Shown piece after piece: positions 1,182-15,162 of a stretch of 64,000 nt of DNA. The translations under genes were made by a program, and so were the position numbers. The DNA lies in assembly GCA_964484255.1 (NCBI GenBank), contig CAZAEH010000001.1, positions 68,674-132,673 on the forward strand, in the 5' to 3' direction. The notes under the pieces were generated by a model, which had not been told where the DNA came from, did not search any database, and worked only from the letters and a program-made list of their open reading frames with translations. This DNA comes from an uncultured Planctomycetia bacterium (GTDB lineage Bacteria > Omnitrophota > Gorgyraeia > Pluralincolimonadales > Pluralincolimonadaceae). Positions within the stretch are counted from its first letter, which is position 1. Every line of letters starts with the position of its first letter.

Positions 1182-1769
1182 CTACTCGTAATAAATATCG
1201 TCAAAGTAGATAGTGAAACCGTCCGGGTTATCCGTGGCGCTCGCTGCAAAGCAGAAGCCGCCGGATATATACGAAAGGTCCTTGCCGGTCAAGTCTATCG
1301 TGTATTCCTTCCATTCCGGGGTAAGGGTTATAGGCCCTATGGAAGCGGTGTCGGTGTCGGCGTATTCGCCGGTTATGCCGCCAAGCTTGACCTCAGCGAG
1401 GGTCTCTCCGCCCTTGCCGCCGCGAGCCCAGAATACGAGCTTGGTAGCGCCGGTAAGGTCAAAACCGCCCGGTTTGGTTCCCCAGTTATTGGCCGGGTTC
1501 TGCCAGTAGATACCGCACCAGCCGGCGCCCTGTTTCTGCTCGCCGGTGGAAGTTATCTTGATACAGTTCGTCCCGCTGTGCGGGTTCTCTTTCCAGCCCG
1601 TATCAAGCTTAAGATCACCGTAATCGCCCATCCAACCCGAAGGTATATAATGGTTGTCACGGGAAGACCTGTCGCTGTATACGTTGAACTTCTTGAACTC
1701 GGCGTATGAGAGGCTCGTAACGCCGGCCATCACGGTTAAAAGCACTGCTAATACAACCAACTTCTTCAT
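1182..1769 (-). CDS. Secreted CBM-like beta-sandwich protein, tandem paralog copy 3
   Basis: ORF with signal peptide. AAGGGGG RBS before the MKKL start. Its 5' 465 nt are identical to window positions 1-465. Confidence 0.8.
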   Translation of the reverse strand: MKKLVVLAVLLTVMAGVTSLSYAEFKKFNVYSDRSSRDNHYIPSGWMGDYGDLKLDTGWKENPHSGTNCIKITSTGEQKQGAGWCGIYWQNPANNWGTKPGGFDLTGATKLVFWARGGKGGETLAEVKLGGITGEYADTDTASIGPITLTPEWKEYTIDLTGKDLSYISGGFCFAASATDNPDGFTIYFDDIYYE

Positions 1770-1785
1770 TGCCAACCCCCTTTCG

Positions 1786-9658: not shown

Positions 9659-9758
9659 GGGGATATTCTATTACTTTAAAGGGGAAAACTCAACCTGAAA
9701 CGAACGCTTGCTTGACCTGCGTTTCCGCGCCAAAGAAAATTTCAGGCTGGCCCGGCCG

Positions 9759-10532
9759 TCAGATCTTTTTACCGATATAAAAAACATATCCGTAATACTG
9801 CTTGTATTTTGAATACAGCTCGGCTTCATGCTTCATGTACCCGACAAAAGTCTCCGCAGTTTTATTTCCGGCGTTATCTTCCAAAAATGCTTTTTGTACC
9901 GCTTTTTGCGGGATAAAATATGTGTCCGTCCAGCATTCTTCAGGCAATATAAAAGCGGCGACAAGGCTATAACCGGTTTTTTGCATTATTGAGATATTAT
10001 GCCCTATTGTACCCATTTCAGGGACAGCATCGACCCAAAACTTCTCGATCTCAGCGGGCCGTTCATCGGTAAACCATGACTCATACGTTAGAGCGATATA
10101 GCCGCCTTTTTTCAGGAAGCCTTTCCAATAGTTCAGGCCCTTTTGAAAACCTATATTGGCGATAGCTCCTTCAGACCATATAACGTCGAATTTTTCATTC
10201 TGGAACGGTAAATTGTCCATTGAACCGACGATGCCTTTTACCCTGTCCTGCAAACCGAGCTTTTCGGCATTTGCGTTAAACTTCGCGATAAAACCGGGAA
10301 ATAGGTCAAGCCCGGTAATTGTCCCTTTTGTGTGTTGCGCAAGGACCATAGTCTGGCCGCCCGTTCCGCAAGCAAGGTCCGCGATCTCCAATTCATCTGA
10401 AAAATTGTCGATAAAACTTAACGCCCTGACAGTGGATTCGACGCTGCCGGGACCCTGCCGCTCCAGCCTTCCGAAATAATCACAAATTAACTTTGGATCA
10501 AAATCGTGAATTAACGCTTCGTCATTTTCCAA
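9759..10532 (-). CDS. Class I SAM-dependent methyltransferase
   Basis: [10 protein letters not shown] motif I. Confidence 0.8.
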
Positions 10533-10595
10533 TACATTTCTCCATCAAATTAGCCGGTATTTCGTATAAATTCACGCTTTAATGGCCCGGCGTTA

Positions 10596-11150
10596 CTATG
10601 TCTTCGCTCCTAAATAGAAGACCATGTTGTCGGACGGCCGGACTAAGATGATCTCGACCGCTGAGGGGTATGTGCTATGGAAACAGGCGCTCCAAAGATA
10701 TATGAACATCTTATCAGATCGGATCTCGTCTTCCTTCGGGAACCACGAGATCTTCTCCCAACGCGAGTATCCTACAACAAAATCGACAGCCTTGCTTATA
10801 ATCTCGGGCAATTGATCTCCGCGATACCAGCTGACGCAAAATTCGTTTGGACCGGGCGTTAGCTCTGCGGGATCAACGTGGCTGATCTTGATGGCAAAGG
10901 CATCAAGATGATCGCCTGTGAATGATCGAGGAGATCGATAGCTGTAGATCACCTTCTCAATGCGGTCATCTCCCAGGTTGCACCAGTTCAACACAAAACG
11001 GACATCCTCGTTCTTTACGGAGTTGATCTCTTCCTTATTACCGAATTGCATCTGGTATATGATGAGTCCGGAGAGCAAGAGAACGCCGAGGAGAGAGATT
11101 ATTCCCCATGCGAGAAGAAGCCGTTTTACTACAGAGGTGATCTTTTTCAT
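10596..11150 (-). CDS. Membrane-anchored hypothetical protein
   Basis: N-terminal TM helix. No recognised domain. Confidence 0.5.
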   Translation of the reverse strand: MKKITSVVKRLLLAWGIISLLGVLLLSGLIIYQMQFGNKEEINSVKNEDVRFVLNWCNLGDDRIEKVIYSYRSPRSFTGDHLDAFAIKISHVDPAELTPGPNEFCVSWYRGDQLPEIISKAVDFVVGYSRWEKISWFPKEDEIRSDKMFIYLWSACFHSTYPSAVEIILVRPSDNMVFYLGAKT

Positions 11151-11160
11151 TTCATCTGTT

Positions 11161-11466
11161 CACCTTTCTTTTTTATGTTTTTTCAATAACTCGCTAACTA
11201 AAATACCGTCAATAGTCATACCCTGAATATTGCAATCAACTATCTTAACGTTCGACATATCAACCTTCCGGAAGGTGCTGTCGCACAACATAGCTTCCTC
11301 AATATCGCTAAGATTGATATTATGGAACTTCGCTTTACTTAAAGTTCATATCATTAAAATCGGCTCCGGAAAGGTTTACATCGTGGAATTCGGATCCGGA
11401 AATATCCGCATGATCAGCCAGGTGCTTTCCGCATTTAATCGTCGGTTCCATTTTATTGTTTCTCAT
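11161..11466 (-). pseudogene. Pentapeptide-repeat protein gene interrupted by a frameshift and in-frame TAA
   Basis: Frame A reads MRNNKMEPTIKCGKHLADHADISGSEFHDVNLSGADFNDMNFK then stops. Frame A+1 continues with AKFHNINLSDIEEAMLCDSTFRKVDMSNVKIVDCNIQGMTIDGILVSELLKKHKKER. The A(D/N)(L/F)xx repeats continue across the break. Confidence 0.6.
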
Positions 11467-11470
11467 ATTT

Positions 11471-11752
11471 CTATTTTCCTCCTGTAAAGGCCACGATTAT
11501 TACGACAACCGCCGGCAAGAAGAGAAGCAACCAGCCGCCAAAGGCGACAAAGCGTCCAGGGGTTTTTCCGGTGATTGCACCTCGTCCGAACCCGACGCCC
11601 GTATAGGCACCCATGGCATCGCTGAACCAGATACAGGCTAATGGGAGGATCAAGAAGATAGCAACACGCCAAGTCAATTCCGGACCATTGGTAAAATATG
11701 CAACCACCAGATACCCAAGGGCAATGATTCCAGAGATAACCTTGCTTTTCAT
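11471..11752 (-). CDS. Small membrane protein (about 94 aa, 3 TM), cassette-like gene 1
   Basis: ORF with RBS. AT-rich. Lies directly after repeat E1. Followed 4 nt later by the pentapeptide pseudogene. Confidence 0.55.
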   Translation of the reverse strand: MKSKVISGIIALGYLVVAYFTNGPELTWRVAIFLILPLACIWFSDAMGAYTGVGFGRGAITGKTPGRFVAFGGWLLLFLPAVVVIIVAFTGGK

Positions 11753-11760
11753 TTTTCTAT

Positions 11761-11841
11761 CTCTAACTCTAACGATTGAGCTCAGCAAGTGCGACATAAA
11801 AACAGGATGCCGACGTAATCCGCTGAAGTGAAATGTTAGAA
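11761..11841 (-). repeat. attC-like imperfect palindromic repeat E1 (inverse-core TTCTAAC overlapping the gene 2 stop codon ... core GTTAGAG)
   Basis: Pairs with E2 over most of its length (about 70 of 80 bp by eye). R and L boxes are separated by unpaired spacers and one arm carries an extra base. Confidence 0.55.
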
Positions 11842-12225
11842 GTTCATTTTTTCCGAGTACCATTCATAAATGTATATTGTAATGATAATAGCTGCTAAAA
11901 ATAACGGTGCCTCACCTAGGAAATTAGCTATTCCTGTTACTGCAATCCATTTAAAAAATACTAAAGACAAAAGCCCTAATACGTTTCCTGCGGCAAAGCA
12001 AAAAAACCCTACGATTGATTTATAAAACAGGGCGATGTTCCCAACAAATGTCAATATTAGAGCTACGAATAGCATTATAATACCTACGATATTCGCTGTT
12101 CCTTTCCCCATTTCATATACTTCCGCAGGAACAGCAAATCTACTAAAAAAAGGATAAATAATCGCTGCTATTAAAAGAACTAAATGTGATACTAATAAAT
12201 AATTAAAATATTTTTTTAAACTCAT
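11836..12225 (-). CDS. Small membrane protein (129 aa, 4 TM), cassette-like gene 2
   Basis: ORF with AGGAGAGAA RBS. AT-rich. The TAA stop lies inside the E1 inverse-core. Confidence 0.6.
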   Translation of the reverse strand: MSLKKYFNYLLVSHLVLLIAAIIYPFFSRFAVPAEVYEMGKGTANIVGIIMLFVALILTFVGNIALFYKSIVGFFCFAAGNVLGLLSLVFFKWIAVTGIANFLGEAPLFLAAIIITIYIYEWYSEKMNF

Positions 12226-12234
12226 TTCTCTCCT

Positions 12235-12309
12235 TCTAACGTTTGAACTCAGCGGGTGGACCCTTATAAACAGGACGCCGGGACAGTCCGCTGGAATAAA
12301 ATGTTAAAT
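12235..12309 (-). repeat. attC-like imperfect palindromic repeat E2 (inverse-core ATTTAAC ... core GTTAGAA)
   Basis: Starts 3 nt after the gene 3 TAG stop. Ends 9 nt before the gene 2 ATG. Same architecture as E1. Confidence 0.55.
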
Positions 12310-12312
12310 GTT

Positions 12313-12588
12313 CTATTTCTGTTTTATTAATTTATTTTTCACGATGACTAATATTGCTGCCACCGATAACGAGAAAATAATATCTATTAATAAATTTGGC
12401 GCTATAAAAGTACTTGAGAGCTCAGTATCTGTAGTAAAATCTATTACGGTATCGTAATAAATAAACGGAAATCCAAGACTGATTGAATTGATTGGGTGTT
12501 TTGTTATACTGTATATAATCTCGCCTACCAAAAGGACCGATGATAGCACCAATACTTGGATTATTGCTTTTGTTATATTGTTTTTCAT
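12313..12588 (-). CDS. Small membrane protein (91 aa, 2 TM), cassette-like gene 3
   Basis: ORF starting MKNNITK. AT-rich. Confidence 0.5.
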   Translation of the reverse strand: MKNNITKAIIQVLVLSSVLLVGEIIYSITKHPINSISLGFPFIYYDTVIDFTTDTELSSTFIAPNLLIDIIFSLSVAAILVIVKNKLIKQK

Positions 12589-12600
12589 ATTAATCTTCCC

Positions 12601-12660
12601 ATAATGATTGAACTCAGCGGGTGCGAGCAATACGAACTCCGCCGGAGTAAAATGCTAAAC
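12601..12660 (-). repeat. Degenerate attC-like repeat E3, directly after the TolC operon
   Basis: Aligns to E1 and E2 (TTTAGCATTTTACTCCGGCGGA...CACCCGCTGAGTTCAA). Terminal core positions are decayed. Confidence 0.45.
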
Positions 12661-12721
12661 TTTATTTTTGGATTAAGTCCTTAACTCAAAGTTTACATTG
12701 GGGTTAGGTGTTTGTAAAGGG

Positions 12722-14050
12722 CTATTTCATGCCTTGCGAGATGATACCCACGGACTTTTCGTACTTGGCGCGGGAGGTGAGGTAATCCGATATCGCGGAA
12801 GCACGGTTCTGTTTTGCGGAAACAAGCTGGGTCTCGGCGTCGGTCACTTCAATTATGGAACCGAGGCCCTCTTCGTAGCGCGCGTTCGCGATCTCAAGGT
12901 TCTCGGAGGACTGCTGCAGCAGCTTACCCGTAACATCAAACCTCTCCTTCGCTTCCCCTAGGCCGAGCACCGCGTCCTGGACCTCGAGGGTTATCCTTAA
13001 GGACTCGTCTTCTATGGCGTATTGCGCCATCTTGAGGCTCGCCTGCGCGGCCTCGACCTGAGACTTCGTCCTGAAACCGTCAAACCACGGGAAATTCACC
13101 GAGATACCGGCATTCCAGCTCTTGACGTTGCCGACACCCTCGGTATCGGTATCGCTGACCTGCTGCGCGCCGGCCGCCGAGACGGTAGGCCAGTTGCCTT
13201 TCTTCTTGACCTCGAGGTCCGCCTGCGCCGCGCGCGCCTGCGCCTGCAGCTTGACGAGCTCTACACGGTTGTCCATGGCCGTCTTTAGCGCCTTGGCAAG
13301 ATTTATCTCCTGCGATTCCGGCATGCCGTATTCCTCCACCGCGAAATCAGAGCTGTCCTTGTTGCCCATTACGTTATTCAGCGACGCCTTGGTGAGCTTG
13401 TAATCTTTTTCCGCGGTAACAAGGCTGAGCTTAGCATTGGAGACCTCGACTTCTGCTTTGGTGACATCATATCTCTGCCTGTAACCGACCTCAAAAAACC
13501 CTTCGGCCCTTTCCAAGTGCACCTGAGACTGCTTAAGGTCCTCCCTCGCGACAGCAAGCATCAGCTGAGCCCTTAATACGGCATAATAGGCCTTCCTGGC
13601 CTCGAGTATCGTGTTCTCCTGCGCCTCAAGGAAAGCGCACTGCGCCGAGGTAAGGTTCTCTTTAGCGAGCTTTATGCTGTTGAGTGTCTTGCCGAAATCC
13701 CATATCAGCTGGCTTACCCCTGTGGATTCCTGCGCGATATTGTAACGCTTGGCAAACCCTCCCATAGAGACCATCGCCTCGCTGTCCGGCCCGAGCGTTA
13801 CCTTGGAGGTATCATAATGTGTATACCCTCCCGAGGTGGATACCTGAGGCATATATGCCGATTTTGCCGTCCCGACCATTGCCTTATAGAAATCCGAATT
13901 CCCCGCGGCTTCCTTAAGTTTCGGGTTGTTGGCAAGCGACGCCTTTACGCAGTCGTTAAGGGTCAAGACGGGTATTTCTTCCGGATAGCCCCAGGGCGCA
14001 GCCGCCAGCACAAGCGTCAATATGACTATTATCTTACGTATAAGTGACAT
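12722..14050 (-). CDS. TolC-family outer-membrane efflux protein
   Basis: Signal peptide and coiled-coil-rich OEP repeats. Last gene of the efflux operon. Confidence 0.8.
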   Translation of the reverse strand: MSLIRKIIVILTLVLAAAPWGYPEEIPVLTLNDCVKASLANNPKLKEAAGNSDFYKAMVGTAKSAYMPQVSTSGGYTHYDTSKVTLGPDSEAMVSMGGFAKRYNIAQESTGVSQLIWDFGKTLNSIKLAKENLTSAQCAFLEAQENTILEARKAYYAVLRAQLMLAVAREDLKQSQVHLERAEGFFEVGYRQRYDVTKAEVEVSNAKLSLVTAEKDYKLTKASLNNVMGNKDSSDFAVEEYGMPESQEINLAKALKTAMDNRVELVKLQAQARAAQADLEVKKKGNWPTVSAAGAQQVSDTDTEGVGNVKSWNAGISVNFPWFDGFRTKSQVEAAQASLKMAQYAIEDESLRITLEVQDAVLGLGEAKERFDVTGKLLQQSSENLEIANARYEEGLGSIIEVTDAETQLVSAKQNRASAISDYLTSRAKYEKSVGIISQGMK

Positions 14051-15162
14051 CACATAGTCCTCTTGAATGTCAGTGTTGCAAGGAAAAGCATGAGCGCCGT
14101 AAAACATGCCAGGAACAGCAGGTCGCCCCTGACCGCGGCGAAACCCGTGCCTTTCAATATCAAGGACTTAAGCGCGTGGACCGCGTAGGCCTCAGGGTTG
14201 ACCGCCGCAAAAGCCCTGAGCCAGCCCGGCAGGCTCTCTATAGGATAAACCGCGCCGCTCGGGAAATAGAATATTACGTTCAGGAAGCCTATGGTGACAC
14301 CGACAATACGCGGATGGTCCGCCCTTCCCAGGACCATGAATATCATGCTAAGAAGGCCAAGCGCCGTAAGCACTATGGTAAATACCAGCAGCGCAAATGA
14401 CATCAGGCCGCCGGCAAGTTTTATCCCCGTTATGAACATACCTCCCATCATGACAAGAAAAGACATTATGGTCGTAATAAAAACACCGCTTATTATAGTC
14501 CCGACGACTATATCCATCCTGGTAAGCGGCGTCGACAGGTAGCTCTCATGTATGCCGAGGAACTTGTCCATCACGATGCTGAAAGCCCCCGTGAAAGTGG
14601 TCCCCATAAATATCGCCATGACTATTATGCCGGGCACCAGTGACGCGTCATAATCGATCTTCTTGTAAAGTTCCACAGCCCTGAACTGCGTCTTCGCCAG
14701 CGTCAAGCGCACAGAGATATACTCCGACTTCAGGTAGTTCATGGCGCGTGAGACGGCGCTGGATACCCCCGCGGCGGAAATGCTGTCGGTATTATCGAGG
14801 AAAAGTCCTATCTGGGGATTCACGTCCTTGACGACATCCTCGCTGAAGCGCGGCGGAATAATCAAGGCCCCCTTGTAAAAACCATTCTTAACCGCCTCTA
14901 TCGCGGCCTTCTGGTCGGTCATCTTTGTTATGTCGAGCGTGCGCGGGCCGTCCCTTAACGCCTGCAGGAGCTCAGTGACGCGCCTGGCATAGGGGCCGTT
15001 ATCCTGGTCGATGATGACAACGGGTATGTGCTTGAGCTCGCCCTGGAAAGAGTTGCCCATTATAATAAGGTAGACCAAGGGCATGAGGATGCTCGCTATT
15101 ATCACTATCGGGTTACGCGAGAACCTCCTAAGGTCCCTCTCTGTTATGGCTAACGCTCTCAT
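14050..15162 (-). CDS. ABC-2 type transporter permease
   Basis: 6 TM helices after a large N-terminal periplasmic loop. Adjacent to an ATPase. Confidence 0.8.
   Translation of the reverse strand: MRALAITERDLRRFSRNPIVIIASILMPLVYLIIMGNSFQGELKHIPVVIIDQDNGPYARRVTELLQALRDGPRTLDITKMTDQKAAIEAVKNGFYKGALIIPPRFSEDVVKDVNPQIGLFLDNTDSISAAGVSSAVSRAMNYLKSEYISVRLTLAKTQFRAVELYKKIDYDASLVPGIIVMAIFMGTTFTGAFSIVMDKFLGIHESYLSTPLTRMDIVVGTIISGVFITTIMSFLVMMGGMFITGIKLAGGLMSFALLVFTIVLTALGLLSMIFMVLGRADHPRIVGVTIGFLNVIFYFPSGAVYPIESLPGWLRAFAAVNPEAYAVHALKSLILKGTGFAAVRGDLLFLACFTALMLFLATLTFKRTM

Follow-up and report, generated by a model that had tools for sequence, protein, structure and literature searches.

A probable attC array without an integrase beside a tolC-like gene in an Omnitrophota-like genome

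attC sites fold as single strands and serve as the sites at which an integron integrase excises and inserts gene cassettes, with the crossover falling between G and TT of the 3′ core. Here we describe three copies (A, B, and C) of a repeat resembling such sites in a 64-kb stretch of contig CAZAEH010000001.1 (below, the window: the whole 64,000 nt that were analyzed). The copies lie on the minus strand, next to a tolC-like gene, and separate small genes. At the sequence level, these elements show every property of attC sites. We are confident that they are genuine integron attC sites and that their array is a cluster of attC sites lacking an integron integrase (CALIN), formed when a chromosomal integron lost its integrase gene, intI. 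Positions 9702 to 12721, the strain-variable block that holds them, are very likely the remainder of a sedentary chromosomal integron between the tolC-like gene and queH in an Omnitrophota-like genome.

An initial annotation of the window, made from the sequence alone, had reported three copies of one element between genes. All three were found again, each sitting between the stop codon of one gene and the start of the next. The features of this part of the locus, in the order in which the array is read, are as follows.

12722-14107, minus strand: tolC-like outer-membrane gene, adjoining the array; GC content 0.55
12599-12660, minus strand: repeat copy A, 62 nt from core to core, of a short subfamily, cores decayed
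12313-12588, minus strand: gene of putative cassette 1; 91 aa, two hydrophobic segments, GC content 0.30, no family match
12234-12309, minus strand: repeat copy B, 76 nt from core to core, cores intact (ATTTAAC and GTTAGAA)
11836-12225, minus strand: gene of putative cassette 2; 129 aa, about four hydrophobic segments, GC content 0.32, no family match
11767-11841, minus strand: repeat copy C, 75 nt from core to core, cores TTCTAAC and GTTAGAG

Aligned together with their immediate flanks, the copies have a mean column identity of 75%. Allowing up to three mismatches, both conserved halves of the element match the 64 kb at A, B, and C only, where shuffled sequences give an expectation of 0, and a covariance model of the wider repeat family, run with its filters off, found no fourth copy in the 64 kb. 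The model gave copy A 41.6 bits, copy B 72.5 bits (E 1.9e-21), and copy C 63.9 bits. Because all three were in its training alignment, these scores are not independent, and the weight of the window scan lies in the absence of a fourth match. Typical family members score 65 to 92 bits and those of the short subfamily 52 to 60 bits; copy B is therefore typical, and copy A stands near the bottom.

One alternative named in the initial annotation was a species-specific family of repetitive extragenic palindromes (REP) or miniature inverted-repeat transposable elements (MITE). Such a family would spread, or be retained for mRNA stability or nucleoid structure, without any relation to integrons. The elements are indeed imperfect palindromes, intergenic, and weak in fold energy, but only three copies occur in 64 kb, in one cluster and on one strand, which argues against such a family.

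Each copy had also been credited with an inverse core at its start and a GTT core at its end. That description holds for copies B and C, whose ends satisfy the 5′ inverse core RYYYAAC and the 3′ core GTTRRRY, and does not hold for copy A, whose ends read GTTTAGC (rather than ..AAC) and ATTATGG (rather than GTT..). Because these cores miss the attC motifs, we class copy A as decayed; it is the sole ATT among 234 3′ cores of the family and one of 3 AGC among 214 5′ cores, and its 3′ core is not matched by the 5′ core of copy B. As the annotation had noticed, the TTCTAAC of copy C contains the TAA stop codon of the 129-aa gene, and the GTTAGA end lies 9 nt (B) or 18 nt (C) before the next ATG.

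This closeness to start codons, at 9 to 18 nt, would also suit the second alternative that the annotation had raised, a structured 5′ leader common to the copies, taken here as a riboswitch-like RNA leader or attenuator of the small membrane-protein genes downstream. So would changes in the L boxes of copies A and C that yield G-U wobbles on the gene-sense strand; in copy C, the two G-T wobbles on that strand correspond to A-C mismatches on the other. The chance of three wobbles falling on one strand is, however, 1 in 8. Rfam gave nothing relevant, either for the region at E values up to 10 or for the whole window at gathering thresholds, and the RNA folds no better than shuffled sequences.

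The repeat family and its cassette junctions

We scanned species-representative genomes, a set that did not include the window's own genome, with a 22-nt degenerate pattern. Matches came from one contig only, L003, which is binned as Planctomycetia and carries ten same-strand copies between small open reading frames (ORFs), two toxin-antitoxin-like pairs, and a DNA methylase. A scan of metagenomes gave at least 120 loci, and the family statistics below rest on the matches listed, among which a profile search found at least 242 elements in at least 121 sources. In these matches the arrays always run on one strand within a locus, with up to 10 elements per locus, and the elements separate small unrelated ORFs, toxin-antitoxin pairs, and a methylase. 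Across the family, 232 of 234 3′ cores contain GTT, and 204 of 214 5′ cores contain AAC.

When attC sites recombine between G and TT, the bases past the GTT of site n are already part of cassette n+1. Their expected complement is thus the 5′ core at site n+1 and not the one at site n. This is how the family behaves. All four variable bases of a 3′ core (GTTxxxx) were matched by the next 5′ core (xxxxAAC) at 89 of 114 junctions (78%), compared to 14 of 206 elements (7%) when a 3′ core was set against the 5′ core of its own element and 5.6% for random pairs. On the sequence evidence, this junction rule is the mark of circularizable cassettes joined at G/TT. The terminal inverted repeats of a REP or MITE family predict the opposite, a match to an element's own other end and not to its neighbor.

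In the window, the rule is obeyed from copy B to copy C (GTTAGAA and TTCTAAC) and broken from copy A to copy B. Cassette 2 is thus recognizable in its entirety, from the TT of GTTAGAA (12239) to the G of GTTAGAG (11773): it begins TTAGAA, and the 5′ core of its attC, TTCTAAC, is the exact reverse complement of GTTAGAA. In L003, the rule held at 10 of 10 junctions, one of which was forecast beforehand. A single failing junction had implied an overlooked site with cores TTCCAAC and GTTATGG, and the covariance model then located a site at 2150 to 2223 of that contig bearing exactly these two cores.

The same results bear on the RNA leader. In other arrays the element both precedes and follows genes of all kinds, and a leader offers no rationale at the RNA level for conserved GTT and AAC cores or for complementarity between neighbors. 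We regard it as highly improbable that the repeats are leaders.

For the structural comparison, 147 distinct elements were aligned. Their layout is a 7-nt 5′ core, a 5-nt spacer, ACT-C-CAGCGG-A, a variable center, CCGCTG-AGT, a 6-nt spacer, and a 7-nt 3′ core. The initial annotation had proposed unpaired spacers of 5 to 7 nt and paired CAGCGG and CCGCTG boxes with one extra base; the spacers do lack conserved pairing, with lengths of 5 and 6 nt, and the boxes do pair, although within a longer stem (ACT-C-CAGCGG-A with CCGCTG-AGT) that carries two bulged bases. The inner, L-box helix is 96.5% paired, and three pairs beyond the L box show double compensatory changes (14, 59, and 11); none of the shuffled or slid controls attained the observed values of pairing or covariation. 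The extrahelical bases sought by the annotation appear in the family alignment as two single-base bulges (columns 16 and 23), both on the 5′ arm only; read on the bottom strand, they would correspond to an extrahelical G and an extrahelical T. Within the R box of a single element, the three outer pairs form in just 38 to 65% of cases, which is what one would expect were the outer 3′ bases part of the following cassette. The elements measure 48 to 120 nt (median, 75), the center varying while the pairing is kept.

The covariance model, built from the environmental family only, was also run over 18 kb from two class 1 integrons of plasmids. It found the aadA1 attC of In2 in plasmid R100 end to end, with 19 of 19 pairs (49.9 bits; E 2.6e-14), and the 95-nt attC of dfrA1 (18.3 bits; E 0.0015). 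Both matches sit exactly at the annotated positions between cassette genes, and nothing else in the 18 kb was significant. The aadA1 site shares with the family the 7-nt 5′ core, spacers of identical length (5 and 6 nt), a 3′ core (GTTAGAT), and two bulges at the same positions of the L-box arm, and all 19 modeled pairs form. It differs in L-box sequence (GTTCAAGCCGA/CGGCTTAAC versus ACTCCAGCGGA/CCGCTGAGT), in its place within a mobile, integrase-equipped integron, and in having been studied experimentally. Ghaly et al. (2021) modeled attC types for eleven taxa, including the Planctomycetes, and assigned the aadA1 attC to a Xanthomonadales type, so we report the likeness as an observation only. 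In score, the aadA1 site (L133, 3001 to 3060) comes near the family's own short subfamily (49.9 versus 52 to 60 bits).

Integrases and the tolC-queH site in related loci

Integron integrases adjoin arrays of this attC family in at least five loci, each with a match to the integron integrase model TIGR02249 above its curated cutoff of 265 bits:

L029: integrase beside array, 463 bits
L124: integrase beside array, 416 bits
L046: integrase beside array, 408 bits
L053: integrase beside array, 391 bits
L102: integrase beside array, 381 bits

The integrase gene of L029 (1574 to 2512) is codirected with its array and not divergent from it, and in L080 (8138 to 8739) an integrase match falls in two pieces and may be a pseudogene. 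Palindromes unrelated to integrons would not be expected beside integron integrases, nor should a model of them find canonical attC sites. Taken with the junction statistic, these observations leave very little probability for a REP or MITE family; both that alternative and the RNA leader are rejected.

In agreement with the initial annotation, the window itself yielded neither an integrase nor an attI. Searches with two IntI proteins (tblastn, E up to 1e-3) returned no integron integrase in the 64 kb, no tyrosine recombinase is encoded in the window, and the conserved attI core (...ACGAATTCGTATATTATAT/GTTA) is missing from it. The window therefore holds three attC sites within 900 nt and no intI, which makes the array a CALIN; of the intI, attI, and cassette promoter that a complete integron has beside its array, only a 54-nt attI-side remnant with a promoter-like site is left here.

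What once stood at this site is suggested by its relatives. The nearest named homologues of the tolC-like protein come from metagenome-assembled genomes of Candidatus Omnitrophota, at 78 to 84% identity. In loci L124 to L126, where TolC is 89% identical and the upstream operon is the same, a 438-aa integron integrase is encoded on the opposite strand 14 nt past tolC. It is followed by an attI core, GTTAGCT, and then by at least 12 family attC sites up to the contig end, and the first cassette satisfies the junction rule (GTTAGCT and AGCTAAC). Loci L127 to L130, with a TolC 78% identical, have tolC, a gene for a 153-aa protein, and queH, with no array.

This first cassette of L124 (12825 to 13150) and a cassette of L003 (2844 to 3182) seemingly encode the same small membrane protein (MDKITKNRT..., judged by eye), and each comes after a GTTAGCT core. 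Either the same cassette is present in two arrays, or L003 is mis-binned.

Comparison of the window with L124 located a piece of the former integron:

12668-12721, minus strand: putative attI-side remnant, 54 nt directly after the tolC stop codon, 87% identical to L124 12730-12783

In the complete integron of L124, the corresponding segment belongs to the stretch that separates intI from the attI core. That stretch holds back-to-back promoter-like sites, of which a perfect TTGACA-16-TATAAT faces intI and the weaker TTTACA-17-TAAACT faces the cassettes. The latter is present in the window at 12718 to 12690, in the same alignment columns, as a candidate cassette promoter (Pc), and we infer from its sequence that it may act as a promoter. 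Missing from the window are exactly positions 11330 to 12729 of L124, 1,400 nt that comprise intI and its promoter. A divergent promoter-like position (L124 12695 to 12761; window 12690 to 12718; L131 11424 to 11451) recurs in at least eight integrons, in two sequence variants.

The initial annotation had called for a comparison of the locus in related genomes, and its content proved not to be conserved. Loci L131 and L132, whose TolC is 99% identical, match the window at 98.7% up to the tolC stop codon and again at 99.8% from 9702 downwards. Between these same two boundaries they hold just 765 nt, wholly different in content: another attI-region variant with a promoter-like TTGAAA-16-TATACT and a mutated core, TTTAGAA, and a 113-aa cassette with a single attC ending in GTTTCAA. 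At the homologous point the window reads GTTTCAG. The strain-variable block is thus 9702 to 12721, twice the island of 11161 to 12700 that had first been drawn.

The distal block and other features of the window

Beyond copy C, the block adds four genes to the array and ends at a half-site:

11471-11752, minus strand: gene for a 93-aa hydrophobic protein; GC content 0.51; after copy C and without an attC of its own
11160-11466, minus strand: pentapeptide-repeat pseudogene, Pfam PF00805 on its N-terminal part, +1 frameshift; GC content 0.38
10596-11150, minus strand: gene for a 184-aa protein with one N-terminal hydrophobic segment and no family match; not in L131
9759-10532, minus strand: gene for a class I S-adenosylmethionine-dependent methyltransferase, 257 aa, Pfam Methyltransf_25/11/31; not in L131
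9701-9695, minus strand: distal boundary of the array, 3′ half-site GTTTCAG, where the L131 sequence resumes

The pentapeptide-repeat gene breaks after ...DMNFK, and its reading frame goes on in frame +1. Because the same frameshift occurs in two independent short contigs, L001 and L002, it is not a sequencing error of the window. The methyltransferase gene is the last of the strain-variable block. As the annotation had it, the three small proteins are hydrophobic, with 2 to 4 membrane-span-like segments, and mutually unrelated. Its description of the genes as AT-rich applies to cassettes 1 and 2 and to the pentapeptide-repeat pseudogene, and not to the 93-aa gene. Among the island proteins, only the methyltransferase and the pentapeptide-repeat protein match a Pfam or NCBIfam family, and none has homologues in the fetched arrays apart from contigs of the same strain.

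The annotation had also found the last unit to lack a terminal element, and the family model, with filters off, detected no attC between 9700 and 11760. No recognizable attC body stands upstream of the GTTTCAG half-site. Three candidates were rejected. The 5′ core expected of a fourth attC after copy C, CTCTAAC, occurs only inside the methyltransferase ORF and at chance frequency; an inverted repeat after the methyltransferase gene (CCTGAAAT...GTTTCAGG) and another downstream of the 184-aa gene form weak folds and do not have the arrangement of an attC site. The distal genes may be cassettes, to judge from their absence from the 99% relative and from the GTT boundary. The sole terminator-like match on the array strand (10639 to 10620) lies inside the 184-aa gene, toward the distal end; matches of this kind do not exceed their chance frequency.

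Two further observations concern cassette 1 and the far end of the window. After the crossover point, cassette 1 (window 12599 to 12612) and an unrelated L003 cassette (2217 to 2230) have identical first 12 bases, TTATGGGAAGAT. Because the 5′ core of copy B does not complement the start of cassette 1, the 5′ boundary of that cassette may not be original. Positions 1 to 300 of the window are 100% identical to 1305 to 1604 and 72% identical to 613 to 912; these repeats fall in tandem paralogous genes of about 196 aa without a family match (490 to 1080 and 1182 to 1775, minus strand). A recent duplication or an assembly artifact could account for the perfect 300-nt copy.

Origin of the array and its place among known integrons

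We propose the following course of events. A deletion of 1,400 nt would have taken out intI and its promoter. Its endpoint probably fell between the two divergent promoters, and the cassette-directed promoter-like site would for that reason have survived directly after tolC. The attI core and whatever came after it would also have been lost, leaving the decayed copy A, two bounded cassettes, and a four-gene block without a recognizable attC that ends at a GTT half-site. Transcription of the cassettes may now start at the retained promoter-like site and may also continue into them from the tolC operon, which is codirected. Copy A is presumably dead, its crossover G having become A and its AAC having become AGC, and cassette 1 would consequently be fixed in place. 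Cassette 2 alone might still be excised if an integrase were supplied from elsewhere, because copies B and C retain intact cores. The distal four-gene block is probably fixed as well, having either lost its sites or been a multigene cassette.

Several points weigh against this interpretation. Copy A fails both core motifs. As single strands, copies A to C fold weakly, with energies no better than those of shuffled sequences (z of −0.1 to −1.7), so that folding by itself is evidence neither for nor against attC sites. No attC could be detected for the four genes of the distal block. The direction of the event, with intI lost in the window and not gained in L124, would follow from the attI-side remnant and depends on it. 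On the other side, the initial annotation's proposal of attC sites in an integrase-less, CALIN-type array is borne out by the junction rule, the covarying L box, the one-sided bulges, and the variable length of the center, as well as by the detection of canonical attC sites, the integrases beside arrays, the complete integron at the same site, and the strain-variable cassettes.

A CALIN could also have arisen here without loss of intI in place, if an integrase encoded elsewhere had inserted cassettes at a secondary site or if the whole locus had been exchanged by way of its conserved flanks. Secondary-site insertion is one of the routes to CALIN listed by Cury et al. (2016; PMC4889954). Exchange of the locus would fit the fact that the window and L131 both lack intI, yet differ in attI-region variant and in cassettes between identical flanks. 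The retained 54-nt attI-side segment, together with a complete integron at the exact site in L124, nevertheless argues for a former integron platform, and secondary-site insertion would bring no attI-flank sequence. We consider these other origins unlikely. A broader reading, that integrase-less arrays in this lineage are still exchanged or remodeled, as whole loci by recombination in the flanks or by an integrase elsewhere, seems to us doubtful.

Formation of the array by loss of intI from a sedentary chromosomal integron, which we favor, has counterparts among known systems. Sedentary chromosomal integrons include the superintegron of Vibrio cholerae, with its V. cholerae repeats (VCR), and the Xanthomonas integrons beside ilvD, in which intI is often inactivated. 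The present arrays resemble them in their fixed site, in attC sites that are closely similar within and between arrays, in their many small cassettes without known function, in toxin-antitoxin cassettes (in L003), in AT-rich cassettes next to GC-richer flanks, and in differences of content between strains. They differ in their uncultivated, Omnitrophota-like host, in the tolC-queH site, and, for the strain of the window, in an integrase gene apparently deleted outright instead of mutated.

CALIN were defined by Cury et al. (2016; Nucleic Acids Res 44:4539; PMC4889954) as at least two attC sites with no integrase, and loss of intI is among the origins that these authors proposed. They found recognizable remains of intI near only 15 of 279 CALIN. 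The present array resembles such clusters in having at least two same-strand attC sites, no intI within 4 kb or within the 64 kb, and cassettes without database homologues. Most CALIN are without a recognizable trace of an integrase, whereas the origin of this one can be read from a syntenic integron and an attI-side piece. Full-text searches of a library of papers found no description of integrons in Omnitrophota.

The array clearly exemplifies a kind of element already known and tells us nothing new about how integrons work. Its attC sites could be recognized by reading the sequence alone, a recognition now confirmed. As a case of CALIN formation it is unusually clear, in that a complete integron, an intI-deleted derivative that keeps its promoter-like region, and a sister strain with other cassettes can be aligned base by base at one site. 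It also assigns a chromosomal integron platform, located between tolC and queH, to an Omnitrophota-like lineage. If the integrase-less arrays of this lineage were indeed still exchanged, then, given how close their attC structure is to that of aadA-type resistance cassettes, uncultivated Omnitrophota of digesters and landfills would constitute an unrecognized pool of cassettes.

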